Source of the DNA: Thermoproteota archaeon
GTDB lineage: Archaea > Thermoproteota > Nitrososphaeria_A > Caldarchaeales > Calditenuaceae
DNA: 64,000 nucleotides
Assembly (NCBI GenBank): GCA_030550235.1
Contig: JAUQPU010000002.1
Location: 231,164-295,163, forward strand
Direction of reading: 5' to 3'
Below are positions 1,288-55,297 of the stretch, piece after piece. Made by a program: the position numbers and the translations under genes. A model generated the notes under the pieces. It had not been told where the DNA came from. It searched no databases and saw only the letters and a program-made list of their open reading frames with translations. Every line of letters begins with the position of its first letter. Position 1 is the first letter of the stretch.

Positions 1288-2436
1288 ATGCCAGTATCTC
1301 GGATAGACATACCGAACATAAGGCTCGGAGAGGAATTCAGCTGCAGCTGCGGTAAGAGACACCGGGTAGCGACCCGGCAGCTATTCTTCGGCGACTCGCT
1401 GGAGACGCTCCTTACCTCCCTCGACGATATAACATCTAAAGGTGGTCACGCTGTGATAGTTACCGGGCCAAGGACGCGACTCATAGCTGGCGAGACTGTC
1501 AAGGGATACTTTGCCTCGAGGGGGTTTCGTACACTTGTCATTGAGGTTGAGAGGGCTGACCTAGCCACTGTCGCGGAGGTTGAGAAGCTTGCCTCGGGCT
1601 GCTCCCTAACAGTGGCTGTGGGTGGTGGGAATGTGATAGACTCTTGCAAATACGCGGCGCACACGCTAGGTGTGCCATTCATCTCAATACCTACAACGAT
1701 ATCCCACGATGGCATAGCCTCACCTGTCGCCTCGATCCTCCTCGGCTCGAGAAGGACAAGCATAATGGCCACGCCTCCTGTAAAGGTTGTTATCGCCGAG
1801 CCACTCATCAGAAGCTCACCAAAGAGGCTAATCGCATCAGGTTGTGCGGACATACTCGCAAAGTCCACAGCCTTAAGAGACTGGCTACTAGGCCACATCA
1901 TAAAGGATGAGTACCTCTGCGAAAATACCTTAAACCTCACGGCCTCGGCCTTAAAAGATGTTAGAAGTTTTATCGACGGTGGAGGGAGAGATTTCCTACC
2001 TCTCGCTTCCGCCGCTGCGAAGTGTGGTGTAGCCATGGCGCTTGTCGGCTCCTCGAGGCCTTGCTCAGGGGCTGAACACCTCTTCTCGCACTACCTCGAT
2101 ATGGTCGGTGAAGGCTTAGGGCTTCACGGCGAGCAGGTGGGGCTCGGAGCTATACTCATGGCCGCCAGGTATGAGGACTCTGACGCACCCCCAGTGAAGG
2201 GGTTTGAGCTCTCAAGCCTAGATTTAAAAAACTATCTCTCAAGGGCAGGCGCGCCAACCAGCATAAGGGAGATTAACATCTCAACAGAGACGGCCGTAAG
2301 GGCGCTTCTAGAGTGTAAGAACCTCAGACCGGAGAGATACACCATACTACACCACGCACCGCTTACACAAACAGCCGCGCTCAAGCTCCTCAAGCAGACG
2401 GATATGCTCACCGAGACCCAGCAGCCCAAAGAATAG
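1288..2436 (+). CDS. egsA: glycerol-1-phosphate dehydrogenase [NAD(P)+] for the archaeal lipid backbone; the true start is possibly downstream
   Basis: Glycerol-dehydrogenase/DHQ-synthase-like fold motifs VAVGGGNVIDSCKYAA and IPTTISHDGIASP. Adjacent to NAD kinase, as is common in archaea. Confidence 0.7.
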   Translation: MPVSRIDIPNIRLGEEFSCSCGKRHRVATRQLFFGDSLETLLTSLDDITSKGGHAVIVTGPRTRLIAGETVKGYFASRGFRTLVIEVERADLATVAEVEKLASGCSLTVAVGGGNVIDSCKYAAHTLGVPFISIPTTISHDGIASPVASILLGSRRTSIMATPPVKVVIAEPLIRSSPKRLIASGCADILAKSTALRDWLLGHIIKDEYLCENTLNLTASALKDVRSFIDGGGRDFLPLASAAAKCGVAMALVGSSRPCSGAEHLFSHYLDMVGEGLGLHGEQVGLGAILMAARYEDSDAPPVKGFELSSLDLKNYLSRAGAPTSIREINISTETAVRALLECKNLRPERYTILHHAPLTQTAALKLLKQTDMLTETQQPKE

Positions 2437-8834: not shown

Positions 8835-9366
8835 TCAAGTTATATCCAGCCGAGTCGTCGGAAGACCCAGAGCATTAGGATGGCTGTCCTCTATTGCCTC
8901 AAGCTCTTGCATAAGATTGTCCAGCATAGGGAACAAATCGTCCACCAACCTGTCCAATATTGTGTAAAGGATATAGGCCGGGCCTCTGCCCATAATGTCC
9001 TGTCGCCGGGCCGCATTGTCTCTGCACGTTTGGAAAAGCGCTGATAGGGGTTTTACATCTGACTGATTTACTGTGACGAGATAGTTTTTGCCGAGGAAGA
9101 CTCCTATCTGAGCCAATGTTATCGTGCTTCTATGGCTGTCGGTTTGGGGGAAAGTGTAGGATAGCGAATATGTGGTTAGGGTATACGTCGATTTTCGGGA
9201 GCTGGACTTTTGAGATGCAATCTTCAAGATTTAACATGCTGAAGGGGAAATGACGGCCCAGCATGTCCATCTCTCTCTGACTGGGCTTATTCACATTCAC
9301 CCAAACCACACCATCATGTCTCAGAAACTCTAAGCCGTCGAACTTCTCCACAACCCTAAACAGCAT
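8835..9366 (-). pseudogene. corA: frameshifted and 3'-truncated Mg2+ transporter CorA
   Basis: Two overlapping ORFs in different frames, 9130..9366 and 8835..9227, together match the CorA cytoplasmic domain (DGVVWVNVNKPSQREMDMLGRHF..LNLEDC..; ..KNYLVTVNQ..GPAYILYTILDRLVDDLFPMLDNL..LEAIED). The C-terminal TM helices and GMN motif are missing. Confidence 0.65.
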
Positions 9367-10144: not shown

Positions 10145-11287
10145 ATGATGTCCGATAAAATTAGATTGGCCTTGGTTGTAATAGTTATTTTGGTTATAGT
10201 AGTCGGAGTTTTTTCCGACGTTGCTGATGCAGCCCATACCCCTGCTTGGAGAAGAACTCGAACTAGAACTAGGACCACAACCTCGGCTCCAACATCGACA
10301 ATCCAAACAACAACTACAACATCTTCTAACACAGGATACTCTGATACGTTTCCAGCCGTTAATCCGGCAATTCTTGGAACATGTCCGCCTGAGGTCCATG
10401 ATAGATACTATGTCATCGGCCCTGATGGTAGAAAATACAGGACATGGCATCCTGTAACCGTGCCTATAGACCCGAATAACCCTGCAAAAGGCACATGCAC
10501 GTTTGCTCATGAACACGGTGATAATCCGCAGCAGGGAAGCTTCACAGACCTTCCCGCATTTGGATACGCAGCGAAGGTCGCTGGAATGGTTGAGGAGATA
10601 GCAGCCCACGCAGGCTTCAAGGTCTTCTACAAGCCAAAGAGGGGCGATGGACTAGGCAACAACGCTGAGTGGAGAATAGTAGTCCATCAGGGCACTGCTG
10701 GTGCGCGACGGCTAGTTCAAAGCCTCCACAGCATCCAAATCAATATAGTCGATGGGGCTGGGAGAGTAACTAAGGTTAACCTAATGGCTTCAACAGGTAA
10801 CCTCAACCCGAAATGCGGACCCCGCGTGGGCGACAGAATAATCCCCGACGAAGAATGCGTCTCCCGGGGGCTGTTCTACGAGGTCTGGTATTTCTCGGTG
10901 CGTGTAGGTGCTGGCAACATCAACGGAGCCAGGTTCTTCGCAGCGCCGGGAATCGCCGTCTACAACCCCATGACATACATGAAAGTAGGCGACCTCTCCA
11001 AAGTTTATCCAATATGCAGCGTGGTTGAGGGCCTGCCTTTCGGGGACCCGAGAAGTTTTTTCCTCGGCAACCAGAGAGCAGTTGAGCATCCAGACTTCGG
11101 CTGGGGCAACACAGGCTCCTCAACCTTCTGGACAGACGCATATGGCAATGAAGTCTCCACAAGCTGCGACCCCACCCGATGCATCAGACAGGTGGTTCCA
11201 TCAGGATACTATGCCTGGTTCGACGATGACTCGGTCTTCGACTGGCCTTGGATAGACCTGCCACTGGGCGCACCAGGGGGCAACTAA
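10145..11287 (+). CDS. secreted or anchored Cys-containing protein with Thr-rich linker, unknown function
   Basis: Signal/anchor LALVVIVILVIVVGVF, a TRTRTRTTTSAPTSTIQTTTTTSS linker (likely glycosylated), and a ~300-aa domain with several Cys and an HEHGD motif. Confidence 0.55.
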   Translation: MMSDKIRLALVVIVILVIVVGVFSDVADAAHTPAWRRTRTRTRTTTSAPTSTIQTTTTTSSNTGYSDTFPAVNPAILGTCPPEVHDRYYVIGPDGRKYRTWHPVTVPIDPNNPAKGTCTFAHEHGDNPQQGSFTDLPAFGYAAKVAGMVEEIAAHAGFKVFYKPKRGDGLGNNAEWRIVVHQGTAGARRLVQSLHSIQINIVDGAGRVTKVNLMASTGNLNPKCGPRVGDRIIPDEECVSRGLFYEVWYFSVRVGAGNINGARFFAAPGIAVYNPMTYMKVGDLSKVYPICSVVEGLPFGDPRSFFLGNQRAVEHPDFGWGNTGSSTFWTDAYGNEVSTSCDPTRCIRQVVPSGYYAWFDDDSVFDWPWIDLPLGAPGGN

Positions 11288-11502: not shown

Positions 11503-12217
11503 CTATCCTACGCCTGGTGATGCGATGATAAGAGAGGGTACATAGAACTGTAAGATTGTGGTGATAGCGTAAAAAGCCATGAGAAGTACTCCCTCGCGTC
11601 GTGTGAGGAGTTTGTCGACGAACAACGGTGTTGCCAACAGTGTGAGGACAGATGCCCAATAGGCTTGGAGGCTGAGTAAAACTCCAGATGGGATTGTCAT
11701 CTCCAAACCATTTGACATTGTTGCTGCTAAAACCATTATTCCCAGCAGCAGTGAGTTATTGAGAATCTCGCTTCCGAGGATGTTTGCTATGGCTGTATCG
11801 ACTCCCACGCCTGCAGGTTCTTCGAGGTATTTGACAAATGGCTCAGCGGCTAAAAATATGCCGGCACCGCGCAGTATGAAGAGTATGGATAAAAAAAGCA
11901 TTGATGAGGGCGGCTTGTAGCTTTCTCGTTTAGAAGATACGTCTCCGTGTTTTTCGGCTTCGGATTAGCGAAGCTGCATGATACGAAAAACCCTAAACAC
12001 CATGGAAAGCAAAGATGGTATATGCTATGAAAAACGTAGCAAATAGAACACCGTCAAGCGTTTGATATCCATCGATAAACAAGACGGTGCTGGCTATCGA
12101 GACAATGATGCTTAATCCCAGGCTCATTAATAATATGTTGCTACCCATAGCCGAGCCCAAAACCGTTCCATACAAGCCAATAGAGGCGGCGCTAGCAACC
12201 AGCACAATCTCTGGCAA
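11503..12217 (-). pseudogene. fragments of a Ca2+/cation antiporter (CaCA, Na+/Ca2+ exchanger-type) gene
   Basis: Two short ORFs, 11993..12217 and 11503..11901, each carry an alpha-repeat-like motif (GSAMGSNILLMSLG; ANILGSEILNNSLLLG). They are separated by a frame break, and neither is a full-length protein. Confidence 0.5.
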
Positions 12218-12461
12218 TATCGTGGTGATGCTAGGCAGTGTTCTGCCGACAAAACGGGCGCCAAATCTGTGAGCGACTACCTCTGCACCCCATGATGACA
12301 GTCAGCCAGGCAAGCAGCAAAATAACTGCGCTCATGGCATTCGTGATGACGTTACAGTCTTTCATGAAACAAAGCATGTCAAGTCATACAATGTGCCCTC
12401 TTTATCTCTTTGGGAAGCCAAAAAGGCTACGAAAATTTAGTTAAATGTAGTATAACTGTGT

Positions 12462-14159
12462 TTAATGGCTGCAGCCGCATGATGGACCGCAGTTCTCTTC
12501 TTTTCCGGGTCCGCCTTGGACGGTTTGTAGCGCCTTTAGCCCGCCGAAGCCGGCGGTTTTAGTTGAAGCCATAGGCACCGCACTCTGTTTTGCTGGCAGC
12601 TTACGCTTGTAGAAGTCATCAGACAGCTTTCTGCCCGTCCTTTTCTCCCACTCCTCTATAGAGATTCCATAGACCGCCTGAATCCGGTCCCTGTACCATG
12701 CCGGGACTACATTGAAGGAGCAGAACGGCACTATCCTCATATCTGGTGTAAGGTAGTGGATGTCACATCTTCTGAGGCGTTCCTCATCGTGGTTATAGGG
12801 GTCCATGAAATGCATCATGCCTAGGAATAGTGATCTGCGGTGCCAGTCGCCTACGCTTTTGTAGTCGTGTCTTACTATTATGTCGAAGATCATTCTTGCG
12901 AGGTTCATTCCTGGGGGTTGTTTTTCTTTCTTGATAAACTTGGATATATTTGCTAGAACTTTCATTCCGACCCAGACTCTGCTTCTACCCATCTCGACCT
13001 CCTCGGCCTTGTCTTGTAGATATTTTATGAGCCCCTCAACGTCTACGAACTCTGTTATTGGAAGCATCTTGTCGTCTTTCTTGAAGACGTAGGTTCCTGC
13101 GCCGCAGGCGAAGTGTATGCTCAGCTCATATTTTGGCGTCCTCGTCAGAGCCTCTATGAAGTTTGTGAGCGGTGTGCAGGCTGGTACGGGGAACCAGGCA
13201 TCCCTTGTGATCTCGCCGTTTGTCTGTTCCTCAATTCTGATTATGCAGTCTGGTATCGTGATCCTATACTTCTCTCTCTCCTTCTTGGGCATCCTTCCGG
13301 TTAGGGAGACGGGCTGGAAGTTTACGGCCCTCACGACATCTATGTTCTTGAATCCGAATCGGATTATGTCGCCGAGCTCGTGGTCGTTTACGCTCTTAAT
13401 GACCGTGGGGACTAGGACTATTCCCACACCCAGCTTCCTAGCGTTCTCAAGAACTCCGGGCACTTCCCAGTGGTTCTTTGGGTTGGTCCTAGGTGTGACG
13501 CCGTCGAAGCTCATGTAGAGGTTGCTGACGCCAGCCTCTTTTACCCGCTTGAAGTATTCGAAGTCCTTGGAAAGTCTTATCCCATTGGTGTTGAGCTGGA
13601 TGTGGTCTACGCCTACTTCTTTGAGGATTTTTATGATTTCGGGGAGGTCGTCCCTAAGAGTGGGCTCTCCTCCGGTTATCTGGATGCTGTTGCCTGGTAC
13701 TGGCCTCTCTGCCTTCAGGTTAAGGGCCATCTCCCTGATCTGGTCCAGCGTTGGCTCGTAGATGTAGCCGGCCTTCTCCGCGTAGAAGAAGCAATACCAG
13801 CAGTGCAGGTCGCATCTATTGGTTATGACTAGGTTTGCGAGGCCTGTGTGGCTGAGGTGTGAGCTGCAGAGCCCACAGTTGTAGGGGCAGACGCTGCGGG
13901 CCGACTCTACATCGGGGTTTCCCGTCCCCTTCCCATCCTTAAGCCAGCTTGCAAACCTGTAATACATCTCAGCGTCGCCGAAGTATAGCTCGTCAAACTC
14001 TCCATGCTTGGGACAGGTCTTTTTGATGTATATTTTCCCATCGATCTCTAGAACATCTGCTGGTAGGGATTGGTAGCACTCTGGGCAGATGCTCCGGGTC
14101 CTTGTAACCAGCTTCTCCTTTACCTCCGTCTTCTCTCTCTCCTGTACAAGTGTAGCCAT
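12462..14159 (-). CDS. radical SAM enzyme with N-terminal rubredoxin-like Cys4 site and additional Cys clusters; possibly a tetraether lipid synthase (Tes/GDGT-MAS)-like enzyme
   Basis: CPECY..CPKHG and then CPYNCGLC. Radical SAM CxxxCxxC as NRCDLHCWYCF. GGEP glycine-rich SAM motif (ITGGEPTL). Cys-rich C-terminus CGPSCGCSH. Length 565 aa. Confidence 0.7.
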   Translation of the reverse strand: MATLVQEREKTEVKEKLVTRTRSICPECYQSLPADVLEIDGKIYIKKTCPKHGEFDELYFGDAEMYYRFASWLKDGKGTGNPDVESARSVCPYNCGLCSSHLSHTGLANLVITNRCDLHCWYCFFYAEKAGYIYEPTLDQIREMALNLKAERPVPGNSIQITGGEPTLRDDLPEIIKILKEVGVDHIQLNTNGIRLSKDFEYFKRVKEAGVSNLYMSFDGVTPRTNPKNHWEVPGVLENARKLGVGIVLVPTVIKSVNDHELGDIIRFGFKNIDVVRAVNFQPVSLTGRMPKKEREKYRITIPDCIIRIEEQTNGEITRDAWFPVPACTPLTNFIEALTRTPKYELSIHFACGAGTYVFKKDDKMLPITEFVDVEGLIKYLQDKAEEVEMGRSRVWVGMKVLANISKFIKKEKQPPGMNLARMIFDIIVRHDYKSVGDWHRRSLFLGMMHFMDPYNHDEERLRRCDIHYLTPDMRIVPFCSFNVVPAWYRDRIQAVYGISIEEWEKRTGRKLSDDFYKRKLPAKQSAVPMASTKTAGFGGLKALQTVQGGPGKEENCGPSCGCSH

Positions 14160-14322
14160 CTATCTTCACCCGCCCCCGTCTTCCGGCCTATTTAAGACTT
14201 ATCTGACAAAATTCACTGTGATAAAGGTAGAAGCCATGCCTCTCAAACTAGTTTAGCTAAATAAATCATATATACAGCCAGTAGCGTGGGATTATCAGGA
14301 GTCTTAAAAAGAGGCTGAGGAG

Positions 14323-24308: not shown

Positions 24309-25262
24309 GTGGAGAAGCTGTCTTGGATAAGGGATTTGGCTGAGAGGGTTAGGGCGGAGATACATAAGTCGATTGTGGGGATGGACACGGCTATTGACTC
24401 GCTTCTAATCTCTCTCCTCGTCCAAGGTCATGTCCTGATTGAGGGTGTACCGGGTCTTGCAAAGACGTACCTAGCCAAGGCCTTCGCAAACACCCTCTCA
24501 CTATCATTCAAGAGGATACAGTTCACAAACGACCTCCTGCCAAGTGACATAGTTGGTGGGATGATCTTTGACCGTCGTAGTGGGGAGTTTGTATTCAGGC
24601 CTGGGCCTATATTCGCAAACATAGTCCTCGCCGACGAGATTAACCGGGGGGCGCCGAGGACACAGTCCGCCCTCCTCGAGGCCATGCAGGAGTTCCAGGT
24701 GACTGTTGAGGGGAAGACATACCAACTCCCCCGACCATTCATGGTCATTGCAACTCAGAACCCCATTGAGCTTGAGGGAACATACCCACTCCCAGAGGCC
24801 GAGCTTGACAGATTCCTGGTCAGGGTTCTCGTCAACTATCCCAGCCGAGACGAGGAGATCGAGATTCTTAGGCTTAAGAATAGGCACGGCGAGGAGCTCA
24901 ACATCTCCCCGGTCGCGGATGCTAGGCAAGTCTTGGAAGCTATTGACGCTGTGAAGACCGTGTATATTGACGACGACGTTCTAGGATATATTGTTGACAT
25001 TGTGAGGGAGTCGAGAAGCTTGCCCGACGTAGTTATGGGGGCTAGCACGCGGGCTGAGACAGCCCTACTCTATGGCTCAAAGGCATATGCGGCAATGATG
25101 GGTAGAGACTACGTGATACCGGATGACGTGAAATACGTCACACCCCTAATACTCAACCATAGGATAATTCTGAGGAGGCAGGTCTCCTCTATTGGCAGGG
25201 AGGAGCATGAGACAATGCTCTTCGCCAGGAAAGTGCTTGAGAAGGTGGAGGCACCCAAGTAA
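24309..25262 (+). CDS. MoxR-family AAA+ ATPase
   Basis: GTG start. Walker A GVPGLAKT, Walker B LADEINR, sensor/arginine region. Length 317 aa, typical MoxR. Confidence 0.85.
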   Translation: MEKLSWIRDLAERVRAEIHKSIVGMDTAIDSLLISLLVQGHVLIEGVPGLAKTYLAKAFANTLSLSFKRIQFTNDLLPSDIVGGMIFDRRSGEFVFRPGPIFANIVLADEINRGAPRTQSALLEAMQEFQVTVEGKTYQLPRPFMVIATQNPIELEGTYPLPEAELDRFLVRVLVNYPSRDEEIEILRLKNRHGEELNISPVADARQVLEAIDAVKTVYIDDDVLGYIVDIVRESRSLPDVVMGASTRAETALLYGSKAYAAMMGRDYVIPDDVKYVTPLILNHRIILRRQVSSIGREEHETMLFARKVLEKVEAPK

Positions 25263-26567
25263 ATGCTTACAAGGGAGGGTGCCCTACTCCTAATCAGCCT
25301 CTCAGGCTGGATAATATTCATCTCCACACTACTTTACCATCCCTTCATCTTCCTAGCCTCCTTCTTCCTACAGACATTCTTCACTACCTACATCCTACTA
25401 GCTAATAGGAAGCTTCGGAGGCTAGACTTCAGTGGCCTCAAAGTCGAGCGGGCTGTTGAGCCCCAAAGAACTGGTGACAAGACCCGCTTGAAGGTGACGC
25501 TGGTAGTGAAGCTTGACGGCGAAGGCAGGCTCTACATACAGGCGATCGAGAGGCCGCCATATGGGACACATCTGATGGAGGGGTCGCTAAGACCTGAGGG
25601 CGCCGTGGGAGATGGACAGACTCTCAGCTCTTCATATGTTCTAGAGGTCTCACCCTCAATGGGACTTGTACGATTCGGAAAGATCACGCTACGAATACAC
25701 GACCCGCTTAGGCTCTGCTACGTCTCCAGGGAAATGGAGGGTGAGCAGGAGGTATTCATCCCATTGGGGGAGCAGCTGGTTGGAGCCGTCTATGGCAGGC
25801 TCCGGGCATCGTGGATTAGGCCGCCCATGGGGCTGGGTTTTAGAGGGCTTGTCGGCTATGACGACGAGTTCTCAGGCGTCAAGTCCTACGAGCTGGGCGA
25901 CAGGATCAGAGATATTCACTGGATGAGATATGCCCAGCAGGTCGACGAGGCGGAGATAGTGGCGAAGAAGTATGTCAAGAAGGGCGAGGTGACGCTCCAC
26001 ATAGTCGTCGACTGCTCACCATCCATAAACGCCGGGGAGGATGCCTCGCTCGTCACGGACATCTCCACGCTCCTCCGCCGGCTATGTCAGACAGCAGAAG
26101 AGGAGGGGAACCCTGTACAGTTCTGGCTGATAAACCCCGAGCTAAACCAGGCTGAGAAGGTCTCGCACCGCAGATTATTCTCAAGAGTGGCGATGGAGCA
26201 GTATATCGCGAGGGTCTTTCCATCTAGGGGGAAGGATGACGGAAAGATAGCAGAGGCCTTCTCTAGGGCTATCAAGGGCTCGAGCGTTGTCTTCTTTATC
26301 GTTAACCCGCCTTCGCCTAATGTGGAGGTGGTTGAGGATATGATTGAGACCTGTAGGGAGGCTGGTGCGAGATATGTCATATGCGTCCCCGACATGTCTA
26401 GCTACTTCTCAAGCCCCTCGGAACAGACCGACCGGCTCTTGGAGCTGGACAGGTTCTTCAAGGATAAGTGGGTCTCGAGGTTTAAGGATAGGGGCTCAGT
26501 CATCGAGATTAGGAAGGGGTTTGCGGTTGACATCACGAGGGAGGCTTTGAGGAGGGGGAGTGAATGA
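25263..26567 (+). CDS. DUF58-family protein (vWA-like partner of MoxR) with N-terminal TM hairpin
   Basis: Signature YELGDRIRDIHWMRYAQ. Starts at the TAAATG junction with moxR. Confidence 0.7.
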   Translation: MLTREGALLLISLSGWIIFISTLLYHPFIFLASFFLQTFFTTYILLANRKLRRLDFSGLKVERAVEPQRTGDKTRLKVTLVVKLDGEGRLYIQAIERPPYGTHLMEGSLRPEGAVGDGQTLSSSYVLEVSPSMGLVRFGKITLRIHDPLRLCYVSREMEGEQEVFIPLGEQLVGAVYGRLRASWIRPPMGLGFRGLVGYDDEFSGVKSYELGDRIRDIHWMRYAQQVDEAEIVAKKYVKKGEVTLHIVVDCSPSINAGEDASLVTDISTLLRRLCQTAEEEGNPVQFWLINPELNQAEKVSHRRLFSRVAMEQYIARVFPSRGKDDGKIAEAFSRAIKGSSVVFFIVNPPSPNVEVVEDMIETCREAGARYVICVPDMSSYFSSPSEQTDRLLELDRFFKDKWVSRFKDRGSVIEIRKGFAVDITREALRRGSE

Positions 26568-27274
26568 GGGCACGGCTAGTCGAGACGTCTTTGATGGCTG
26601 GAATCCTCCTCACGCCCCTACTCCTAAACCTGGACTATCTAGCCCGCATCTCCCTTACACCCTTCCTAATCCTCGGATGTCTCTCCCTCCTCTCGACCTA
26701 TCTCCCAGCCAAATATCAACACCTGATAATCCCACTCATATATCTGCCAGCCATCACGAGCCTCGTAATACTTGTTCTGGAGAGGATTCCACAATATATA
26801 ATAGACCTGGCCAGCGGATACTTGATCAGCATACCGTTTATATCCATGATCGGCCTTATCAAAAGCCCCAATCTCAGAACCACTGTTATAAGCTACATCA
26901 CGAGCCTCACAAGCTCCTATCTAGTCTGGGTAATAGCGATAGAGTCTACAGAACACGGTGGACAGCTGTTCCTCTCCCTGATAAACGTGTTCATCAGCAG
27001 GGAGGCGTGGGAGAGGCCCCAACCCCCCCAGATCTTCGCGGCTCTAACCGCTTTCTCATCCATAGCACTGGTCATATACCTCTGGCGGTCTTATGGAGCT
27101 GTGTTTAGACGGGAGCAGGGAGATGCCCTCTTACTATCAGCCACAGCGGCAAGCCTCGCGGTGGCCTCGGTAGTTCTCTACTCCCTATTTTATGATGACT
27201 CGGTGGCATTGGGACTTATCATCGCGGCCTCCCTAACCCTAGCCGCTACACTGAAGGTTGGTGTATTGAAGTGA
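26564..27274 (+). CDS. polytopic membrane protein, unknown function
   Basis: Six or more hydrophobic helices. Its start overlaps the stop of the upstream gene. Confidence 0.5.
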   Translation: MRARLVETSLMAGILLTPLLLNLDYLARISLTPFLILGCLSLLSTYLPAKYQHLIIPLIYLPAITSLVILVLERIPQYIIDLASGYLISIPFISMIGLIKSPNLRTTVISYITSLTSSYLVWVIAIESTEHGGQLFLSLINVFISREAWERPQPPQIFAALTAFSSIALVIYLWRSYGAVFRREQGDALLLSATAASLAVASVVLYSLFYDDSVALGLIIAASLTLAATLKVGVLK

Positions 27275-28854
27275 ATGCGAGGGCATCTCCTGCTCTAGCC
27301 TTAGCGGTGTTGATTGTGATGGTGATTCAGCCGATGGGCCAGGCCCAGGAAGAGGGCTTTCTACTGGTGGGGTACGGTGGCGAAAAGTTTCTACCCTTTC
27401 TCGACGGAGCGAGATACAGGTTTGTTGTAGGGGAGTCGCTGGTTCTGAAAGCGATAGGCTCGGACATCTCAGTTATACTAACCACAAGTAAGGATGAGGA
27501 ACACGTCTTCCGTATAGGTGCTGGAGACTCCTTGGAGGTCCGGAGATTTGGGCCTGGCGATGTGGGGCTCATGTCCCTAGCGGTGGTGGGTGGTGGGAAG
27601 GCGGTGATAGAGGTGCTCAGCGTGGAGGAGTCGGCCCTAGGATGGATTGAGTTCCAGCCAGTGGGAACTGTATCGAATGGGTCCGGGACGCAGGAGGTGT
27701 TAGAGGCGAGGATAGTTGGGTCCACCCTCTCAGGCTTCGAGCTGAGAGGAGAGGAGGGTGAGGGCAGGAGAATATTCGTCAGGCCCAACTCTACATTACA
27801 GCTACAAATACCAGCAAACGCTCTGAACGCGAAGGTCACACTCCTCAGCCAAGACTTCATCGAGTTGAGCGGCTACACTGGTCAACTACACCTTGTTTAT
27901 AGGGTTGAGCCCGTTGTGGCTGAGTATATGTTCAACGTGACTGGAACTGGTCAGCTTGTGCGGGTTGTCGACGTTCACATCCCCGCTCTGGGTGAGGTGG
28001 GTGAGAATGGTTTGGTCCCCCTTAGGTATGGTATACTTCTTATGAGTCTAGTGTATACTGCGCGCTCAGGGGGAAGGTTTGAGCAGAATTTCGAGGTCAT
28101 GGTCTCGCCCATTATGGATGAACCACCTCCGATGAGCTCCACCGTAACCATAACTCTTGAGGAGCTTCTACGCAGCGGTTTGGAGGTAGTCACTGCAGAC
28201 CTCAGCACGGGAAGGTTCGAGCACCGGGTGGTCCGCGTACCCGACTATCGAGTCATTGTCTATGACACCTACTTTGGAAGCTGGGTTGAGGATTACTCCA
28301 TCAGCTTCACTGGATACGTCTCGCTTAGGAATGGGACCGAGTCAATAATCATCCCCAGTACGGTCTCAATCAGCGAAGAGGAATACCCCTCCAGAATCGC
28401 CATCAGACCGTCTTTCACGGTCTACTCGGTTGATATAAGCGACTCCATAGGCCCTGTTACCCTAGAAGCAGGCAGGACCGTTACTATCTATGTGGAGGGT
28501 AGGCTTGTTGATGTAGAGGTGAGGCATGCGGCCGGTTTCCTCATACAGGACTCCAGTATCTATGTTAACGACACGTTTCGCGGTGTTGGTGGCAGTTTGA
28601 GCCTCAGACTTCCGGCTGGAATATACAACTTCTCAGCTGCGACCCCGTTTGGGAAGGTTTTCTCTGCCGCCGACGTCAGGGATGTTAGGCGGGTGGTACT
28701 AGTCGTGAGGGGGTACACTGCTGAGACACTAGCACTCATAACTGTCTTTCTAATACAGCTCTCGATCTTTGCGATGTATTCTTGGAGGTGGTTGAAGTCT
28801 AGGAGGCTTAGGGGTATTTGGGGGTCGAGCGGCGAAAATCAGGCTAAGAAATAA
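27271..28854 (+). CDS. large extracellular protein with signal peptide and C-terminal TM anchor, multiple N-glycosylation sequons
   Basis: Signal LALAVLIVMVIQPMGQAQE and C-terminal TM LALITVFLIQLSIFAMY followed by a basic tail. N-x-S/T sequons are frequent. Confidence 0.5.
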   Translation: MNARASPALALAVLIVMVIQPMGQAQEEGFLLVGYGGEKFLPFLDGARYRFVVGESLVLKAIGSDISVILTTSKDEEHVFRIGAGDSLEVRRFGPGDVGLMSLAVVGGGKAVIEVLSVEESALGWIEFQPVGTVSNGSGTQEVLEARIVGSTLSGFELRGEEGEGRRIFVRPNSTLQLQIPANALNAKVTLLSQDFIELSGYTGQLHLVYRVEPVVAEYMFNVTGTGQLVRVVDVHIPALGEVGENGLVPLRYGILLMSLVYTARSGGRFEQNFEVMVSPIMDEPPPMSSTVTITLEELLRSGLEVVTADLSTGRFEHRVVRVPDYRVIVYDTYFGSWVEDYSISFTGYVSLRNGTESIIIPSTVSISEEEYPSRIAIRPSFTVYSVDISDSIGPVTLEAGRTVTIYVEGRLVDVEVRHAAGFLIQDSSIYVNDTFRGVGGSLSLRLPAGIYNFSAATPFGKVFSAADVRDVRRVVLVVRGYTAETLALITVFLIQLSIFAMYSWRWLKSRRLRGIWGSSGENQAKK

Positions 28855-34163: not shown

Positions 34164-35303
34164 GTGTTTGAGGCTGCCTTTCCAGTCGAGGAGAGATACG
34201 ACCTCTGGAGGCTAGCCACGTTTACACTCAATAAGAGGATCCCGATACACAGGTGGTTCTATTTTAAGGAGGGGTTCTCTCGCGACCTAGTCGTTATGCT
34301 TTTGGAGGAGCTTGGTTTAGCTGAGGGTTGTGTTGTCTTGGACCCGTTCGTAGGCTCGGGGACTACACCCTTAACCTGTATGGAGTTAGGGATGAAGGGT
34401 GTTGGAGTGGACGCATCTCCACTTGCAGCCTTTGTCTCCATTGCGAAGACCAGAATATATAACCACGAAGAGCTCAGGAGGGCCCTTGACACCCTCCTCT
34501 CATCAAGGCCAAGCCAGCCGAGCCTAGAGGGTCTGGGTACAAAAGTTAAGCGGGCATACCCTAGAAGGAACCTCGTGGAGCTTCTAAGCCTAAGAGAAGC
34601 CATCGAGGAGGTTGAACAGGAAGACGTGAGAATATTTCTCAAGATGGCTCTGATAAATGCAGCCTCGAAGGCCTCCTATATCTTTAGGGATGGCTCTGTT
34701 TTGAGATTTATTAAGCGCCCCATCCCGCCCCTCAGGCCCTTCTTCCGAAGAATCGCACAGTCGATGATCGATGATGTGAGGAGGGTGAGATTCAGTAGCG
34801 GCCCAGCAACTATACTGGAGGGAGATGCTAGGCGGCTGGACTCTATAGAGGACGAGTCTGTAGAAGCTATAATAACCTCACCCCCCTACCTCAACAAGAT
34901 AGAATACACGAAAGTGTACGAGGTGGAGCTCGAGCTCTTCTTCAAGAAGAGAGAGCAGGACCTTATAAGGTCATATATAGGATTGGTCGGGAGGGAGGCC
35001 CCTAGAGTAATCGAGGGTCTAGAAGAGCTCCCAGACTCCGCCAAGCTATACTTCTCGGACATGATGGATTGTTTAGAGGAGATGTGGCGGGTCTTGAAGA
35101 ATGGAGGTAGGGCCGCGATAGTGGTGGCTGGAGGCGTATATCCAGATAGGATTGTCGAGTCAGACTACATACTGGCAGGTCTAGCCAGGGAGATAGGGTT
35201 TACCGTAGAGAAGATACGAGTGATTGGCAGGAGGGTAGCGACGAGTGGGAGGGTCCATAGAATAGGAGCGGCCCGAGAGAGCATAATATATCTCAGGAAA
35301 TAG
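34164..35303 (+). CDS. SAM-dependent amino-methyltransferase (N6A/N4C DNA MTase-like), orphan
   Basis: Motif I VLDPFVGSGTTPL with a preceding HRWFYFKEGFS block. Motif IV IITSPPY lies C-terminal to motif I. No restriction endonuclease gene is adjacent. Confidence 0.6.
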   Translation: MFEAAFPVEERYDLWRLATFTLNKRIPIHRWFYFKEGFSRDLVVMLLEELGLAEGCVVLDPFVGSGTTPLTCMELGMKGVGVDASPLAAFVSIAKTRIYNHEELRRALDTLLSSRPSQPSLEGLGTKVKRAYPRRNLVELLSLREAIEEVEQEDVRIFLKMALINAASKASYIFRDGSVLRFIKRPIPPLRPFFRRIAQSMIDDVRRVRFSSGPATILEGDARRLDSIEDESVEAIITSPPYLNKIEYTKVYEVELELFFKKREQDLIRSYIGLVGREAPRVIEGLEELPDSAKLYFSDMMDCLEEMWRVLKNGGRAAIVVAGGVYPDRIVESDYILAGLAREIGFTVEKIRVIGRRVATSGRVHRIGAARESIIYLRK

Positions 35304-36480
35304 CCAGTTTGGCCCTTCTCCCACGCCAGGTCAATTCTATACGCCTTCTCGATACTGAGAGGTACGAATCTATGAGAGAGAGGACGAGGACCCAGTTAGC
35401 AAGGAGCGTCAGGGGTGCATAAATTAAGCTATATCTCACGCGAAGCCTCCGGAGCTCGAGGAGATTTGCAGCTATGTTCAGGGCAACCGAGATAGCTCCT
35501 AAGAATAGCAATGGAATGGAGGGGAAGAGAATAGCTAGGACCAAGATTATCTGGGGTAGCAAGAGCTGTATGAATGCGCCTGTGATGAAGTATTTCAACC
35601 GGCCGAGGCTATGTGTTGCGGCATAGTCTCCTACAAGCCGCTTGATGGCACTTATGTAACCTGAGAGGCTTCCAGCATACTCGGCCACTATCCTCTCCGA
35701 ACCATTTAGTAGAAGCATCCGATAACCCCTCCTCTTGAGGAGACTTGCCAGGGCCCTATCCTCTAGTACACGGCTACGAACTGCCTTATGCCCACCGACC
35801 TCGCTGTAGACCCTCCTATTTATGAGGATGAAGGCTCCAAAGAGAAACGCTGTTGGGTCTCTTGGGTCATTGCTCCGGGTTGGTGGGAATAGGGACCAGA
35901 GGATGTTCTGTAGTAGTGGGAGCATTATCTTAGATGGGAGGGAGCCTGTGTCCAGTCTTGGTATCAGCGAAAGAGCGTCGAGGCCTTCCAACTCGCACTT
36001 AGCTAAGGCGTCGGCTAAAACGTTCTCGTTTAAAAGCCTCGTATCCGCGTCCATGAATAGAAGCCAGTGGTTTGAGGAGTGTTGAAACCCCCTCCAGCAG
36101 GCCCAATTCTTCCCCCACCAGTCCGCCGGGGGCTCCCCAACCCTCATATACTTGACCCCCTTACGCAGAAAGCTACCTAGAACAAGCCCACCAGTACCAT
36201 CCTCCGAGCCGTCATCTACAAAGATGACCTCACCCCCTACACCCCTCTGCATAAGGAGGGTAGAGAGACAACCCTCTACCCAATCCTCAACATTTCTGCC
36301 CGGGATTATCACTGAGAGCTGGGATCTGGGTTTATGATGCAGTTCTCTGAGCTTCTCAAGCCCGTGGAGCGTGATTGCCCGTTTATGTACAATCCATATC
36401 CACGCCAGCACAGTTAGAGTGAGGATTGCCGCTACGATTAGGAGGGCCACGATATATAGAGTGTTTGTGGCGGTAGCCAT
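35293..36480 (-). CDS. family 2 glycosyltransferase with C-terminal membrane domain
   Basis: LSVIIPGRNVE...VIFVDDGSEDGT GT2 motifs, DAD (DxD), multiple C-terminal TM helices. Confidence 0.75.
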   Translation of the reverse strand: MATATNTLYIVALLIVAAILTLTVLAWIWIVHKRAITLHGLEKLRELHHKPRSQLSVIIPGRNVEDWVEGCLSTLLMQRGVGGEVIFVDDGSEDGTGGLVLGSFLRKGVKYMRVGEPPADWWGKNWACWRGFQHSSNHWLLFMDADTRLLNENVLADALAKCELEGLDALSLIPRLDTGSLPSKIMLPLLQNILWSLFPPTRSNDPRDPTAFLFGAFILINRRVYSEVGGHKAVRSRVLEDRALASLLKRRGYRMLLLNGSERIVAEYAGSLSGYISAIKRLVGDYAATHSLGRLKYFITGAFIQLLLPQIILVLAILFPSIPLLFLGAISVALNIAANLLELRRLRVRYSLIYAPLTLLANWVLVLSLIDSYLSVSRRRIELTWRGRRAKLAIS

Positions 36481-45041: not shown

Positions 45042-46121
45042 ATGGAGATTCCGGGGAAGGCTGCAGAGCTATGGGTGGCCGAGGCTGGGAGGATTAAGTG
45101 CACAGCATGCGCCCGCTACTGCCGCCTATCCGACAACCAGGTAGGCCTATGCGGGGTGAGAGGGGTCCACGACGGAAAGCTATACCTCCACGTCTACGGC
45201 AGAATAATAGCGAGCCATGTCGACCCAATAGAGAAGAAGCCAGTCACACACTTCATGCCCGGAACTAGAATATTCAGCATAGCGACGACAGGCTGCAACT
45301 GGCTCTGCCAGTACTGCCAGAACTTCGATATAAGCCAGAGGAGGAAGGTGGAGGGGATTGAGGTGACGCCGCGCCAAGTTGTCGAACACGCCATAAGATA
45401 TGGCTCACACGGAATCGCATACACTTACAACGAGCCTACAATCTTCATGGAGTTTGCAAGGGATATAGGCCTCGAGGCAAAGCGGAGCGGCCTCTTCAAT
45501 ATCTTCGTAACAAATGGTTACTGGACACCAGAGTCTGTAGCCATGGCTGGGACATTCCTCGACTCCGCGACAGTGGACTTCAAGGGTAATGGAGAGCGAG
45601 GGTTTGTGAGAAGATACATAGGGATACCGGACGTAGAGCCTATCTTTCAGACACTCCTCGAGATGAAGGAGAAGACGAGAATACATATCGAAATAACTGA
45701 CCTGGTCGTGCCCGAGATAGGGGACGATCTAAATGCGGCGAGAAAGCTTGTGAGATGGGTTCATGACAACCTAGGCCCAGACACACCCATTCATTTCCTC
45801 AGATTCCACCCGGACTACAAGCTCATGCACCTACCATGGACCCCCGTCGAAACCCTAGAAGCCCATTGGAAAATAGCGAAGGAGGAGGGGATGAACTACG
45901 CCTACATAGGTAATGTGCCCGGACATCCATACGAGCATACATACTGCCCAGGCTGCGGATATATAGTCGTGGAGCGGCTCGGCTTCGACATAATAGAATG
46001 GCGCCTAACACATGAGAACAAATGTCCAAGATGCGGCTACAAAATAGCGATAACTGGTAGGCCGCCGCAGCAAGGGCTCAAGAAAAGCAGATTCATACCA
46101 GTCCACTGGAATCTGACCTAA
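45042..46121 (+). CDS. AmmeMemoRadiSam-system radical SAM enzyme (PFL-activase-like)
   Basis: CNWLCQYCQN radical SAM cluster motif and TNGYW. C-terminal Cys pairs CPGCG...CPRCG. Confidence 0.7.
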   Translation: MEIPGKAAELWVAEAGRIKCTACARYCRLSDNQVGLCGVRGVHDGKLYLHVYGRIIASHVDPIEKKPVTHFMPGTRIFSIATTGCNWLCQYCQNFDISQRRKVEGIEVTPRQVVEHAIRYGSHGIAYTYNEPTIFMEFARDIGLEAKRSGLFNIFVTNGYWTPESVAMAGTFLDSATVDFKGNGERGFVRRYIGIPDVEPIFQTLLEMKEKTRIHIEITDLVVPEIGDDLNAARKLVRWVHDNLGPDTPIHFLRFHPDYKLMHLPWTPVETLEAHWKIAKEEGMNYAYIGNVPGHPYEHTYCPGCGYIVVERLGFDIIEWRLTHENKCPRCGYKIAITGRPPQQGLKKSRFIPVHWNLT

Positions 46122-46593
46122 ACTCCCAACACCAAAGTCTCTCTATAATACTAGTCTTAGCCTCCTAGAGACACTAGGTTTCAAAATACCTCAGACACTT
46201 CAGGGCCAGCGATGCGAGACAAGGCCTTGGACAAGCAGCCCGGGCTCACATCCCTCTCTACATCAAATCCTTCATAGAAAATACCGGCTACACTTCCCCG
46301 GAGCCAGCGGATAGCCCCACATCCATGACGGCATACGCAGCCCGCCTCGCCATAGATATCTACACAGCACAGCTAGCCGATGTTGAAGAATCTAAAAAGC
46401 TCGAGCGCCTCCTCCACCGCTTCGTCAAAACCCACCTCATACCAGCCTTAAAAACATGCAAACCCTCAAAACAAAGCCCTCTCAGGGGTGATTCAGGCGA
46501 TTGCGGAGCTTTTAGAGAGGGATTGTGAAAGCTTGTTGAGACTGCTAGTGGAAAAAGGTTTAACCCAATTACGTAGTGGGTGCATGTTTTTAA

Positions 46594-47613
46594 ATGTCTG
46601 GATACTTCTACTCGCATAGAATGCAACTTGTCGATAGCTTCGGCCGCGTGGCGCGGAAGCTTAGGCTCTCCGTCACAGATAGATGCAACTTCAAGTGCGA
46701 CTTCTGCATGCCACTAAAACCCACATGGATACCCAGCTCAGAGATTCTAACCTTTGACGAGATATCGAGGGTCGTAAAAATACTGGCATCGATGGGTGTC
46801 TCAAAGATACGGCTCACAGGAGGGGAGCCCCTTGTCAGGAGAGAGATTGAGAAATGCGTGAAGATTCTGAAAAAGGTGCCGGGCGTGGAGACCATATCGA
46901 TGACCACGAATGGCTATTTTCTTGATGAGAAGGCAGCAGCTCTCAAGGAGTCTGGACTAGACAGCGTCACAATAAGCCTACACAGCCTAAAACCTGAAAG
47001 GTATGAACAAATAGTCGGGAGAAAGGATGCTTTCAGCAAGGTTCTCAGCGGAATCAAGAGGGCTCAGGCCGTAGGCCTCAGTCCCGTCAAGTTAAACTGC
47101 GTAGTCATACGTGGCTGTAACGACGACGAGATACTTGATTTCGTAGAGCTGGGACGTGAGACTGGCCTAGTCGTAAGATTTATCGAATACATGCCCTTTG
47201 ATGGCAAGAATATGTGGAATCCCGATAGACTCGTCACTGGAGCAGAGATAATCTCAAAAATAGAGGAGAAATATAGAATCGAGAGGCTGCCCCGAGAGCA
47301 TGGAAGCACATCCCTCACCTATAGAATCAAAGATGGATCTGGTACGCTAATTAATATCATAACCACCATGTCACAGCCATTCTGCAGAGACTGCGACAGA
47401 ATAAGATTGTCGGCCGACGGCAAGATTGTACCATGTCTGTTCAGCCGCGACGACTACGATGTTAAGAAACTTCTACGGAACAATGCATCAGACGAGGAGA
47501 TAGCTGATTTTATCAGAAGCGCCTTCATGAAGAAGTTCGCGGGCGTGGAGACGCTGCTGAAAAACGGGGAAGTTGAGCCATTGATTAGACCCATGCACAC
47601 CATAGGCGGCTAG
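46594..47613 (+). CDS. moaA: GTP 3',8-cyclase (molybdenum cofactor biosynthesis protein A)
   Basis: LSVTDRCNFKCDFCMP radical SAM motif, GGEPL, and a C-terminal second cluster CRDCDRIRLSADGKIVPC. Confidence 0.85.
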   Translation: MSGYFYSHRMQLVDSFGRVARKLRLSVTDRCNFKCDFCMPLKPTWIPSSEILTFDEISRVVKILASMGVSKIRLTGGEPLVRREIEKCVKILKKVPGVETISMTTNGYFLDEKAAALKESGLDSVTISLHSLKPERYEQIVGRKDAFSKVLSGIKRAQAVGLSPVKLNCVVIRGCNDDEILDFVELGRETGLVVRFIEYMPFDGKNMWNPDRLVTGAEIISKIEEKYRIERLPREHGSTSLTYRIKDGSGTLINIITTMSQPFCRDCDRIRLSADGKIVPCLFSRDDYDVKKLLRNNASDEEIADFIRSAFMKKFAGVETLLKNGEVEPLIRPMHTIGG

Positions 47614-47839
47614 TCTCATAACTCAAGTCTCCTCAGCTCTGTTGCAATTATTATGCCGCGTCTCATCAAATATTACAGCAATGCTCGTGAAGTTATCTGG
47701 CACAGCAACATACAGTATGTCACGCGACACTTGATACGCTACAGGCATGCCAGGTAATTTTTGCATAAATTTTTTAATAAGTATGGGATTTTCCATGACA
47801 ATGGTCTGTCGCATATCTACGTTATGGAAGTATCGTGAC

Positions 47840-48844
47840 ATGAGGACATTAATTATAGAGAACTCACGCATACGGTTAGTTATACTATTAGATAAAGGGG
47901 CCGACATAATAGAACTGAGATATAAGCCATTGGATCTGGATCTCATGTGGCATTCACCAACCGGTTGGAGAAACCCGGTAATGGAGACCTCGCCTAACCC
48001 AAATAATATGGGAGGGTTCCTTGATTACTATGGAGGAGGATGGCAGGATATTGTGCCTTCCGCCGGTGGAGCAAGTGTAACACACAGGGGCGCAGCTCTT
48101 GGGATACATGGAGAATCTTCCATGCTTCCATGGAGCTGTGAAATTTTAGAGGACGGTGTGGAAGAAGTTTCCGCCCACCTATGGGTTGAAGGTGTCAGAT
48201 ACCCCTTTAGACTTGATAAGTGGATAGAGGTAAGACGGGATGAAGAGAAGCTCTACGTGAGGGAGAGACTCTCAAACCCTAGTAATCAGGCGCTTGAATA
48301 TTCGTGGCTTCAGCATCCCTCATTTGGGGAGCCATTCCTAGAGCCCAAATGTAAAATACGGATACCTACACCCGCAGAGGTTATAGTTTTGGAGGGGGAG
48401 CACCTCGGCAGACTCCAGCCAGGAACATATGAGTGGCCTACAGTCGCCGGAAAGGATGGCAAACCCATCGATTTGAGCATAATACCTTCCAGAGAGATTG
48501 TGGCTGAGGAGACTTCCTTCATAGCGAATATGAGAGAGGGATGGTACATACTTTCGAACCCCAAGCTAGACCTGGGGTTTGGACTCGCATGGGACATAGG
48601 TGTGTATAGGTACCTATGGTTCTGGCAGAACTACAATGCGCCTGATTATCCTTGGTATGGCACCGCATGGAATATCGCACTTGAACCTTGCACAAGCTAT
48701 CCCGGAGGCCTCCCAGCCCAGATACAGAGAAAAACGCACATAACCATCCCTCCAAAAGGGCACCTTGAGACCTCACTAACAGCATTCGTACTAAGCAACC
48801 CAGAGAAGATAGGCAAACTAGACGTCAGAGGCGAAAGCGAGTAG
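47840..48844 (+). CDS. galactose-mutarotase-fold (aldose-1-epimerase-like / DUF4432-like) protein; the ORF track starts it at 47747, but ATG at 47840 (MRTLIIEN) is more plausible
   Basis: LDLMWHSPTGW...GGGWQDIVPSAGG...HGESS...W pattern of mutarotase-like beta-sandwich enzymes. Followed by sugar oxidoreductases. Confidence 0.5.
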   Translation: MRTLIIENSRIRLVILLDKGADIIELRYKPLDLDLMWHSPTGWRNPVMETSPNPNNMGGFLDYYGGGWQDIVPSAGGASVTHRGAALGIHGESSMLPWSCEILEDGVEEVSAHLWVEGVRYPFRLDKWIEVRRDEEKLYVRERLSNPSNQALEYSWLQHPSFGEPFLEPKCKIRIPTPAEVIVLEGEHLGRLQPGTYEWPTVAGKDGKPIDLSIIPSREIVAEETSFIANMREGWYILSNPKLDLGFGLAWDIGVYRYLWFWQNYNAPDYPWYGTAWNIALEPCTSYPGGLPAQIQRKTHITIPPKGHLETSLTAFVLSNPEKIGKLDVRGESE

Positions 48845-48923
48845 CTTACATCAGTGTTCAACCCCGTATTTTAACAATATTGTGAGAACAAATATTATAT
48901 ACCGGTTTCCCAGATAGCCAGTT

Positions 48924-49955
48924 GTGGCGGCTAAAATTACTGTTGCAATATTGGGATACGGATTCATGGGCTCTACACACGCTGATGCTTGGCGCTTGAT
49001 TGATGGATGCGTTGTTAAAGGTGTTTGGGCGAGGGACAATTCAAAGACATCAAAGTTCGCATCAGAACGCGGAATCAAGGCTTATTCCTCATTTAGCGAT
49101 GTCTTGGACGACAAAGAAGTTGACGTAGTTGACATATGCACGCCAACATACACTCATGCCGAGTACGCCATACAGGCGTTGAAGTCTGGTAAGCACGTAA
49201 TAGTTGAGAAGCCCATGGCACTGAGCCTAGCAGATGCAGATAAAATGATTCATGCTGCGGATGAAAGCGGAATGAAGTTGATGGTGGCCCACGTTCTAAG
49301 GTTTTTCCCAGAATATATGAAGGTGAAGGAATTGGTAGACGAGGGTAAGCTCGGCGAGATATGCCAGGCTAGGGCTTTTAGAGGAGGCGCTTTTCCTGAA
49401 TGGAGCCCGTGGTTTGGTGAGGTTGAGAAGAGTGGGGGCGTGGCCGTTGATACTGCAATACACGATGTGGACTACATAACTTGGATTAGCTCAGGCATCC
49501 CCCAACGAGTATACGCAAAGATTAGGCGCGGAGCTAAAGAAGCCTCAGCTAAATATGAAATCGCCTTCATAAACGTGAGATATAAGAATGGAATGATAGC
49601 CTTCATTGAGGCAAGCTGGGCGCATCCACCCTCATTCCCCTTCACGATGAAGCTAGAGCTGGACGGCACCGAAGGAACGGTAACATTGGACAACCAGTCC
49701 CCAGTCCCTATCTCGCTATTCTCGCGAACTATAAGGCAAGGATATGCACCAGAGTCTCTACCTTGGAAGCCTATGGTGCATCCATTCCCGCTTGACCCAT
49801 TCTACCGCGAGCTATCACATTTTGTAGACTGCGTTAGAAACGACAAGACACCAATGACAGACGGGAGAGCGTCGCGGAGAAGCTTGGAGGTGTGCCTCGC
49901 GAGCGTGAAATCTGCAGAGACAGGTAGGCCAGTTGAGCTACCATTCGTGGGGTGA
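48924..49955 (+). CDS. Gfo/Idh/MocA-family NAD(P)-dependent oxidoreductase (paralog 1)
   Basis: N-terminal Rossmann ILGYGFMGSTHA and the EKP motif (VIVEKPMA). Confidence 0.8.
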   Translation: MAAKITVAILGYGFMGSTHADAWRLIDGCVVKGVWARDNSKTSKFASERGIKAYSSFSDVLDDKEVDVVDICTPTYTHAEYAIQALKSGKHVIVEKPMALSLADADKMIHAADESGMKLMVAHVLRFFPEYMKVKELVDEGKLGEICQARAFRGGAFPEWSPWFGEVEKSGGVAVDTAIHDVDYITWISSGIPQRVYAKIRRGAKEASAKYEIAFINVRYKNGMIAFIEASWAHPPSFPFTMKLELDGTEGTVTLDNQSPVPISLFSRTIRQGYAPESLPWKPMVHPFPLDPFYRELSHFVDCVRNDKTPMTDGRASRRSLEVCLASVKSAETGRPVELPFVG

Positions 49956-50967: not shown

Positions 50968-51025
50968 CTAGGCTCAAAAACCCTAACGAATGAGACAATA
51001 GACGTTCCCCAGCCTAGCCCCATGG

Positions 51026-51790: not shown

Positions 51791-51918
51791 GCCTCTATCA
51801 AGCGTGCGAGTTATTTAAAAATTTTAGAAACATTGAAAGAAGAGCTCCATATCGCTCTTATTACCAACTTTGGCTAAATTTTTAAATACACCTCACTGAC
51901 CACACTTTTTGACGATAT

Positions 51919-53013: not shown

Positions 53014-53052
53014 ATATTTATATGATGTGAAAAGATAGCAAGTGTTGCAACT

Positions 53053-54144: not shown

Positions 54145-54165
54145 AATGATAGAGGGTATGGCGTT

Positions 54166-55254: not shown

Positions 55255-55297
55255 ACTCAAAAAATTATTAGATAAATTTATGGTTTTAGATGCTGTA

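Follow-up and report, generated by a model that had tools for sequence, protein, structure and literature searches.

A predicted tetraether lipid synthase with a cysteine-bearing C-terminal tail in a Caldarchaeales archaeon

A 64,000-nucleotide (nt) stretch of contig JAUQPU010000002.1 (assembly GCA_030550235.1, positions 231,164 to 295,163; hereafter the window), from a hot-spring archaeon of the Caldarchaeales, encodes a large radical S-adenosylmethionine (SAM) enzyme. The question raised by this locus is whether the enzyme is a tetraether lipid synthase (Tes), that is, a glycerol dialkyl glycerol tetraether (GDGT)/macrocyclic archaeol synthase (GDGT-MAS). Tes catalyses the committed step to GDGTs, which are membrane-spanning lipids, by joining two membrane lipids tail-to-tail. 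The thermostability of archaea depends on GDGTs, which are also the basis of the TEX86 palaeotemperature proxy. An earlier interpretation made from the DNA letters and translations (the sequence-only reading) had proposed this assignment for a 565-residue protein at 12462-14159, with no strand given. The open reading frame (ORF) is present at these coordinates on the minus strand and is referred to here as tes (Table 1). From its sequence and a structural model, we consider that the gene is a functional Tes orthologue of a thermophilic Caldarchaeales archaeon with a probability of roughly 0.9.

Family, domains and metal ligands of the tes product

The protein encoded by tes matches the curated NCBIfam equivalog model of tetraether lipid synthase Tes (NF045702), for which the cutoff is 450 bits, with 723.6 bits (E=1e-217), and the match spans positions 2-484 of the 486 in the profile and residues 21-499 of the protein. 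Pfam searches identified a radical SAM core (PF04055, residues 111-268, 1.9e-28) preceded by the Zn_ribbon_HMPTM domain (PF23545, residues 19-60, 1.9e-17). The only strong sequence match in the PDB is to the Methanocaldococcus jannaschii GDGT-MAS, MJ0619 (7TOL/7TOM). Alignment with MJ0619, which the sequence-only reading had suggested as a check, is end-to-end, with residues 19-507 matching chain residues 23-514 of 7TOL at 46.5% identity (E=2.9e-141). A model generated with AlphaFold2 from a 53-sequence alignment (predicted template modelling (TM) score 0.82; mean predicted local distance difference test score (pLDDT) 79) was matched by Foldseek to 7TOM/7TOL with a TM-score of 0.90, normalised to the target, over ∼512 columns. 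The model covers all four domains of 7TOL, namely the rubredoxin-like domain, one for the N-terminal auxiliary cluster, the radical SAM core and one for the C-terminal auxiliary cluster. No transmembrane segment is predicted in the protein, for which the highest 19-residue Kyte-Doolittle mean is 1.3, and other Tes proteins likewise have none (Zeng et al., PMC8941075). The protein is a member of the Tes family, and the score far above the equivalog cutoff, the shared fold and the presence of the ligands described below together support the earlier assignment.

Four metallocofactors have been defined for the MJ0619 enzyme (PMC9433317; PMC13459092). The set of ligands follows Lloyd et al. 2022 (PMC9433317) together with a review of 2026 (PMC13459092). 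The chain numbering of 7TOL equals the native MJ0619 numbering plus 20, and conservation was scored in a MAFFT alignment of 115 sequences. The 13 published metal ligands and Tyr459 of MJ0619 are all identical in the window protein, and these ligands and the tyrosine are invariant in 115 of 115 homologues, except for a single gapped row at C25/C28. The motifs quoted in the sequence-only reading are all found (C25-P-E-C28, C49-P-K-H52, C91-PYN-C95-GL-C98 and C116-DLH-C120-WY-C123). That reading had left the N-terminal site as either Cys3His or Cys4-like; the site is Cys3His, with a C-x2-C-x20-C-x2-H spacing identical in the two proteins, and the Cys4 description does not hold. The loop bearing ligands for the auxiliary N-terminal cluster, [4Fe-4S]N, has low pLDDT in the model, which is cofactor-free. 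The CX3CX2C motif of the radical SAM core consists of C116, C120 and C123 (nt 13791-13814), equivalent to C98/C102/C105 of MJ0619.

Within the domain for the auxiliary C-terminal cluster, C352, C465 and C480 correspond to C338, C455 and C470 of MJ0619 and are the only cysteines there that the two proteins have in common. M449 is equivalent to Met439, the labile ligand, and Y469 to the strictly conserved Tyr459. Of the five residues named for the SAM pocket of MJ0619, four are conserved, with F124, Q282, S285 and R289 matching Phe106, Gln268, Ser271 and Arg275. Hence, the window protein resembles MJ0619 in its four-domain architecture, in all four ligand sets, in the tyrosine and in the Phe/Gln/Ser/Arg of the SAM pocket. 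The two differ at two non-ligand cysteines, Cys438 and Cys456, which are Met and Asp in the window protein, apparently at Arg210, which aligns with Asn, and in a 42-residue tail with three cysteines and a histidine that only the window protein contains. They also differ in host, a Caldarchaeales archaeon rather than a methanogen.

The closest named relatives of the protein are from Archaeon HR02 (91% identity) and Caldarchaeales metagenome-assembled genomes (MAGs; 88%), followed by the Tes proteins of Pelearchaeum, HR01 and Ca. Caldarchaeum subterraneum (∼82%). The proteins of Nitrososphaerales and Bathyarchaeia, named tetraether lipid synthase Tes by NCBI and JGI, are 60-70% identical in the catalytic body, with invariant ligands. 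Several close relatives (P0017, P0029, P0032, P0038 and P0043) contain an intein. These intein-containing Tes proteins (NF045703), some of which are from Caldarchaeum MAGs, have exteins 67-82% identical to the window protein, but they carry an intein of ∼458 residues between the equivalents of Tyr122 and Cys123, whereas the window gene is intein-free. Since the intein is situated exactly between these residues, the third cysteine of the CX3CX2C motif is its +1 extein residue. In a separate case, the Caldarchaeum MAG BF3_201808_bins_33 has Tes matches of 81-82% identity on two separate contigs, which could represent a second copy or strain heterogeneity within the bin.

The identical 565-residue protein is found on at least 24 public contigs of NCBI MAGs that share the order of genes, an example being the 1.39-Mb contig of GCA_038736325.1. 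The host is therefore a repeatedly sampled population of hot-spring Caldarchaeales (formerly Aigarchaeota). The members of this order are reported to be aerobic heterotrophs, and its cultivated members (Calditenuis) are reported to contain Tes together with GrsA and GrsB (PMC12979851). The presence of tes in the genome predicts that the organism is a GDGT producer, which for the Caldarchaeales confirms the earlier report.

Proposed activity and alternative assignments

Each of the following steps has been demonstrated for MJ0619 (PMC9433317; PMC13459092; bioRxiv 10.64898/2026.09.04.749484) and is extended to the window protein by homology. The [4Fe-4S] cluster bound by C116/C120/C123 would reductively cleave SAM to yield a 5'-deoxyadenosyl radical, which would remove a hydrogen atom from the methyl carbon at the end of a saturated phytanyl chain in a diether phospholipid of the archaeol type. 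The resulting lipid radical would then be stored as a C–S bond on the C-terminal auxiliary cluster, [4Fe-4S]C, ligated by C352/C465/C480 with M449 as the labile fourth ligand. A second SAM would generate a radical at a second phytanyl terminus, and its attack on the sulfur-bound carbon would produce a C(sp3)–C(sp3) bond and with it a biphytanyl chain. Two lipids coupled once in this way would give GTGT, or glycerol trialkyl glycerol tetraether, and a second coupling would give GDGT-0, with four SAM consumed per GDGT, while intramolecular coupling would lead to macrocyclic archaeol as a by-product. Electrons are presumably relayed by the Cys3His iron site at the surface (C25/C28/C49/H52) and by [4Fe-4S]N (C91/C95/C98/H101). 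It is by analogy with the characterized enzyme that we infer Tes activity, the product spectrum and GDGT as the main product of the organism.

Several points weigh against the assignment of a functional Tes. The activity is assigned by homology, which is itself no proof of it. Halobacteria have Tes homologues yet no GDGT, and heterologous expression of Saci_0703 yielded no product (Zeng et al., PMC8941075). The main residual doubt is thus a general one, namely that certain homologues, those of Halobacteria among them, occur in organisms that lack GDGT. The residue aligned with Arg210 of MJ0619 is N226, which is invariant in the clade and is the only departure seen in the catalytic body, although an adjoining indel makes the alignment uncertain at this point. 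The role of C352, C465 and C480 as [4Fe-4S]C ligands is likewise deduced, from their being the sole shared cysteines of that domain. Lastly, no gene for GrsA, GrsB, GGGPS, DGGGPS or GGR is present in the 64-kb window, and synteny lends the assignment no functional support.

Some of these points would also fit a Tes-family paralogue that has another substrate or main product (macrocyclic archaeol or GTGT), or that makes no GDGT, and is not the GDGT synthase of the organism. In favour of such a protein are the homologues in organisms without GDGT, the asparagine in place of Arg210 together with the clade-specific tail, and the two Tes loci in one related MAG, and the split between GDGT and macrocyclic archaeol is known to be variable and poorly understood (PMC8941075; bioRxiv 10.64898/2026.09.04.749484). 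Nevertheless, we regard a paralogue as improbable. The protein scores far above the Tes equivalog cutoff and it clusters with the Tes proteins of the Nitrososphaeria, the best-established producers of GDGT, at 60-70% identity. In addition, its catalytic and ligand residues are all invariant, and Caldarchaeales genomes carry GDGT ring synthases, the substrate of which is GDGT (PMC12979851).

The assignment as a functional Tes could also be in error if the protein were instead a TrsS radical SAM (seleno)protein or an enzyme of the PqqE, AhbD, NirJ or MoaA type. TrsS (NF045646) does share a homologous full-length radical SAM scaffold with the window protein and aligns with residues 20-485. However, its 328.6 bits fall short of the 490 set as the TrsS cutoff and do not reach half of the Tes score. 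MoaA and SPASM models match the radical SAM core, within residues ∼106-314, and fall far below their cutoffs: MoaA models score at most 81.9 bits against cutoffs of at least 231 (81.9 bits against a cutoff of 284 for the highest), and PqqE, AhbD, NirJ and other SPASM families score about 42 bits or less against cutoffs of 380-650 (AhbD, 42.2 against 500; PqqE, 36.6 against 381). The next fold matches after 7TOM/7TOL, which are MoaA, HydE and viperin, extend only over the radical SAM barrel with TM-scores of ∼0.3 (MoaA, 0.31). The 3' end of tes was examined for selenocysteine because TrsS, a sister family, is a selenoprotein. The window gene has no selenocysteine codon: the stop is TAA, there is no in-frame UGA, and several further in-frame stops lie beyond it, so readthrough is not plausible. 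Membership of another radical SAM subfamily with loss of the Tes residues, the outcome that the sequence-only reading had held against its own proposal, was not what was found, as Tes scores highest and the residues are present. The profile scores effectively refute this group of alternatives.

The legacy annotation of MJ0619 as 7,8-dihydro-6-hydroxymethylpterin dimethyltransferase (HMPTM), which survives in the Pfam domain name Zn_ribbon_HMPTM and in the JGI names of some homologues, is scarcely credible for the window protein, given that the activity was not corroborated by Lloyd et al., that the same protein bound lipid and formed GDGT and macrocyclic archaeol (PMC9433317), and that the family is spread across non-methanogenic archaea.

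The C-terminal tail

The enzyme family is known, its occurrence in this lineage has already been reported and the identical sequence is public, so that as a Tes the window protein is already known and represents no new biology. The only undescribed feature is the C-terminal tail, which is a minor lead. The sequence-only reading had noted a Cys-rich tail, and it is indeed present, ending in N-C557-GPS-C561-G-C563-S-H565. It does not correspond to a known cluster site of Tes but is an extra segment outside the crystallized enzyme, situated beyond the end of the 7TOL alignment and predicted to be disordered (pLDDT ∼30 in the AlphaFold2 model). Within the reach of a limited literature search, the tail is not described in the Tes literature.

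Nearly all proteins of the Caldarchaeum/Pelearchaeum/HR01/HR02 clade have a tail with an ASTKTAGFGG motif, an IQGG motif and one to four cysteines within the last ten residues, and the endings include CGCSH, CCSH, CCSR, CGCGH and CCCGQ. One species of the clade has a shortened tail that lacks cysteine. The tail is faster-evolving than the remainder of the protein, with 47-83% identity compared with 80-96% in the core. It is absent from Geocrenenecus and Terraquivivens, which are other Caldarchaeales, as well as from MJ0619. The Tes proteins of ammonia oxidizers, Bathyarchaeia and Marsarchaeota have different tails with internal cysteines, one type in ammonia oxidizers and Bathyarchaeia being LYRGTLRRGGH..GCGC...IQPITGT and another, in Nitrososphaera, Nitrosocaldus and Nitrosopumilus, being ...GCA.SEMH.... 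The Nitrososphaeria and Bathyarchaeia proteins are of similar length to the window protein (∼550-570 residues) because they also carry a Cys-containing C-terminal extension, but these extensions look unrelated in sequence and their cysteines are internal rather than at the extreme C terminus. Judged from their sequences, Tes tails sort into lineage-specific types in the sampled set, which is without sequences of Sulfolobales, Thermococcales and methanogens. When the tail was searched by itself in a set of 1.84 billion representative proteins, the only matches were a C-terminal fragment of Tes and, spuriously, an IQ-repeat protein; hence, the tail is not a module common to other proteins. No other ORF of the 64-kb window ends in CC or CXC.

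The tail may be a functional appendage, either a Cys-based membrane tether or an additional Cys/His metal or redox site, although taken together we consider these two possibilities rather unlikely. As a candidate tether, it would act as a flexible linker with CC or CXC at its end, which is reminiscent of the lipid-modified termini of Rab-type proteins, and it would explain how Tes gains access to a membrane substrate without a transmembrane helix. As a candidate metal or redox site, it would serve the surface-exposed iron and [4Fe-4S]N centres. If the tail is an appendage of either type, the tails of ammonia oxidizers, Bathyarchaeia and Marsarchaeota would be convergent or diverged counterparts. 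Neutral drift is a third possible account. All structural and mechanistic work on Tes has so far been carried out with the tail-less M. jannaschii enzyme. Should the tail affect membrane targeting, metal content or oxygen tolerance, this would matter for the use of Tes by the main environmental producers of GDGT.

Gene neighbourhood and other features of the window

Table 1. Coordinates of tes, its encoded domains and neighbouring features in the window
Feature	Position	Strand	Details
Probable glycerol-1-phosphate dehydrogenase (EgsA)	1288..2436	plus	Pfam Fe-ADH_2; NF002022; PDB matches
Decayed CorA gene	8835..9366	minus	Two overlapping ORFs, 130 + 78 aa; downstream of tes
Na/Ca-exchanger remnant	11503..12217	minus	132 aa, plus 74-aa ORF; just downstream of tes
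T-rich tracts TTTT, TTTTT	12420..12435	minus	27-44 nt past tes stop; seen in sequence
tes coding sequence	12462..14159	minus	565 codons; ATG start at 14159, TAA stop at 12462-12464; ORF list
Clade-specific C-terminal extension	12465..12590	minus	aa 524-565, 42 residues; Cys/His terminus given in text
C-terminal auxiliary-cluster domain (SPASM-like)	12720..13106	minus	C352 to C480; C352, M449, C465, Y469, C480
Radical SAM core	13356..13829	minus	aa 111-268; PF04055
N-terminal auxiliary [4Fe-4S] ligand motif	13857..13889	minus	C91-x3-C95-x2-C98-x2-H101 = MJ0619 C73/C77/C80 + H83
Rubredoxin-like zinc-ribbon domain, mononuclear Fe site	13980..14105	minus	aa 19-60; C25, C28, C49, H52 = MJ0619 C9, C12, C33, H36
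Putative promoter/initiation region	14166..14195	minus	TTAAATA + GGTGA; seen in sequence
Helix-turn-helix (HTH) protein, 123 aa	14323..14694	plus	Divergent from tes; C-terminal Cys/His cluster (…LCQAH…VDSCHICD)

From its flanking sequence, tes looks like a self-contained archaeal transcription unit. Upstream of the ATG, TTAAATA at a distance of 30-36 nt (14189-14195) is a putative archaeal TATA box, and GGTGA lies 7-11 nt ahead of the start (14166-14170). Both are within a 163-nt intergenic region common to tes and the divergent HTH gene. The T-rich tracts beyond the stop are a possible archaeal oligo-T terminator. A scan for bacterial-type promoters and terminators was uninformative, as expected for an archaeal host.

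The sequence-only reading had also placed tes in a context of lipid synthesis on the grounds that the window encodes glycerol-1-phosphate (G1P) dehydrogenase, in a position not adjacent to tes. The product of ORF 1288..2436 is probably a G1P dehydrogenase, an assignment that is sound at the family level: it matches NF002022 over its full length with 276.5 bits, which is under that model's strict cutoff (413), and in the PDB it is best matched by the archaeal G1P dehydrogenases 5FB3, 4RGQ and 4RFL (E∼1e-45). G1P dehydrogenase catalyses the first step of the same pathway as Tes. Its gene is ∼10 kb from tes with unrelated genes in between. That part of the earlier claim stands, while the proposed context does not extend to physical linkage, and the neighbours of tes differ between genera. 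Nearby genes are of unrelated, housekeeping kinds and encode the divergent HTH protein, an AsnC-type regulator, SufS, a PNPOx-like protein, ThiW and ThiDN, alongside the gene remnants of a Na/Ca exchanger and CorA. Only MAGs of the same species share this gene order, and the surroundings of tes bear no relation to it in Ca. Caldarchaeum subterraneum, in a Nitrososphaerales contig or in a further MAG of the Nitrososphaeria. The comparison yielded no lipid operon and no conserved partner of tes, and it means that neither the divergent HTH gene nor the nearby SufS gene has a conserved role. Since the HTH gene adjoins tes in the host species and not in other genera, there is no evidence that it regulates tes. 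Thus, tes is a stand-alone gene, the context of which provides no functional evidence.

The two transporter remnants are likely to be real pseudogenes rather than assembly errors, as gene calls for the Na/Ca-exchanger remnant and for one of the CorA fragments fall at matching positions in the species' other MAGs. Between them, a 380-residue protein (10145..11287, plus strand) without a Pfam match looks secreted or surface-exposed, having a hydrophobic segment at its N terminus and a Thr-rich linker. It is kept at the same position in sister MAGs.

A family-2 glycosyltransferase (35293..36480, minus strand) is a candidate isoprenoid or lipid glycosyltransferase, its best NCBIfam matches being HpnB (hopene-associated) and CruG (carotenoid 2'-O-glycosyltransferase), both sub-threshold. 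Two adjoining radical SAM genes (45042..47613, plus strand), neither of them for a GDGT ring synthase, encode an enzyme of the AmmeMemoRadiSam system, which exceeds its cutoff with 324.5 bits, and a MoaA-like GTP 3',8-cyclase.

The stretch 24309..28854 (plus strand) may be a MoxR-associated module, in which a MoxR-type AAA ATPase (AAA_3) precedes three ORFs in the same direction (434, 236 and 527 residues) that have no Pfam match, and an ABC permease comes next. A tRNA gene at 59109..59219 (minus strand), which has a long variable arm and an anticodon-loop insert of ∼29 nt that is an intron of archaeal type, was found by Rfam (43.9 bits), whereas ARAGORN gave no tRNA for any part of the window. 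Finally, the region 46000..58000 has a G+C content of 0.46-0.49, compared with 0.50-0.57 elsewhere in the window. It contains genes for three GFO/IDH/MocA oxidoreductases, a DUF4432 protein, a creatininase-family protein and a sugar-type ABC transporter with two MalK-like ATPases, and may be an acquired sugar-utilization island.

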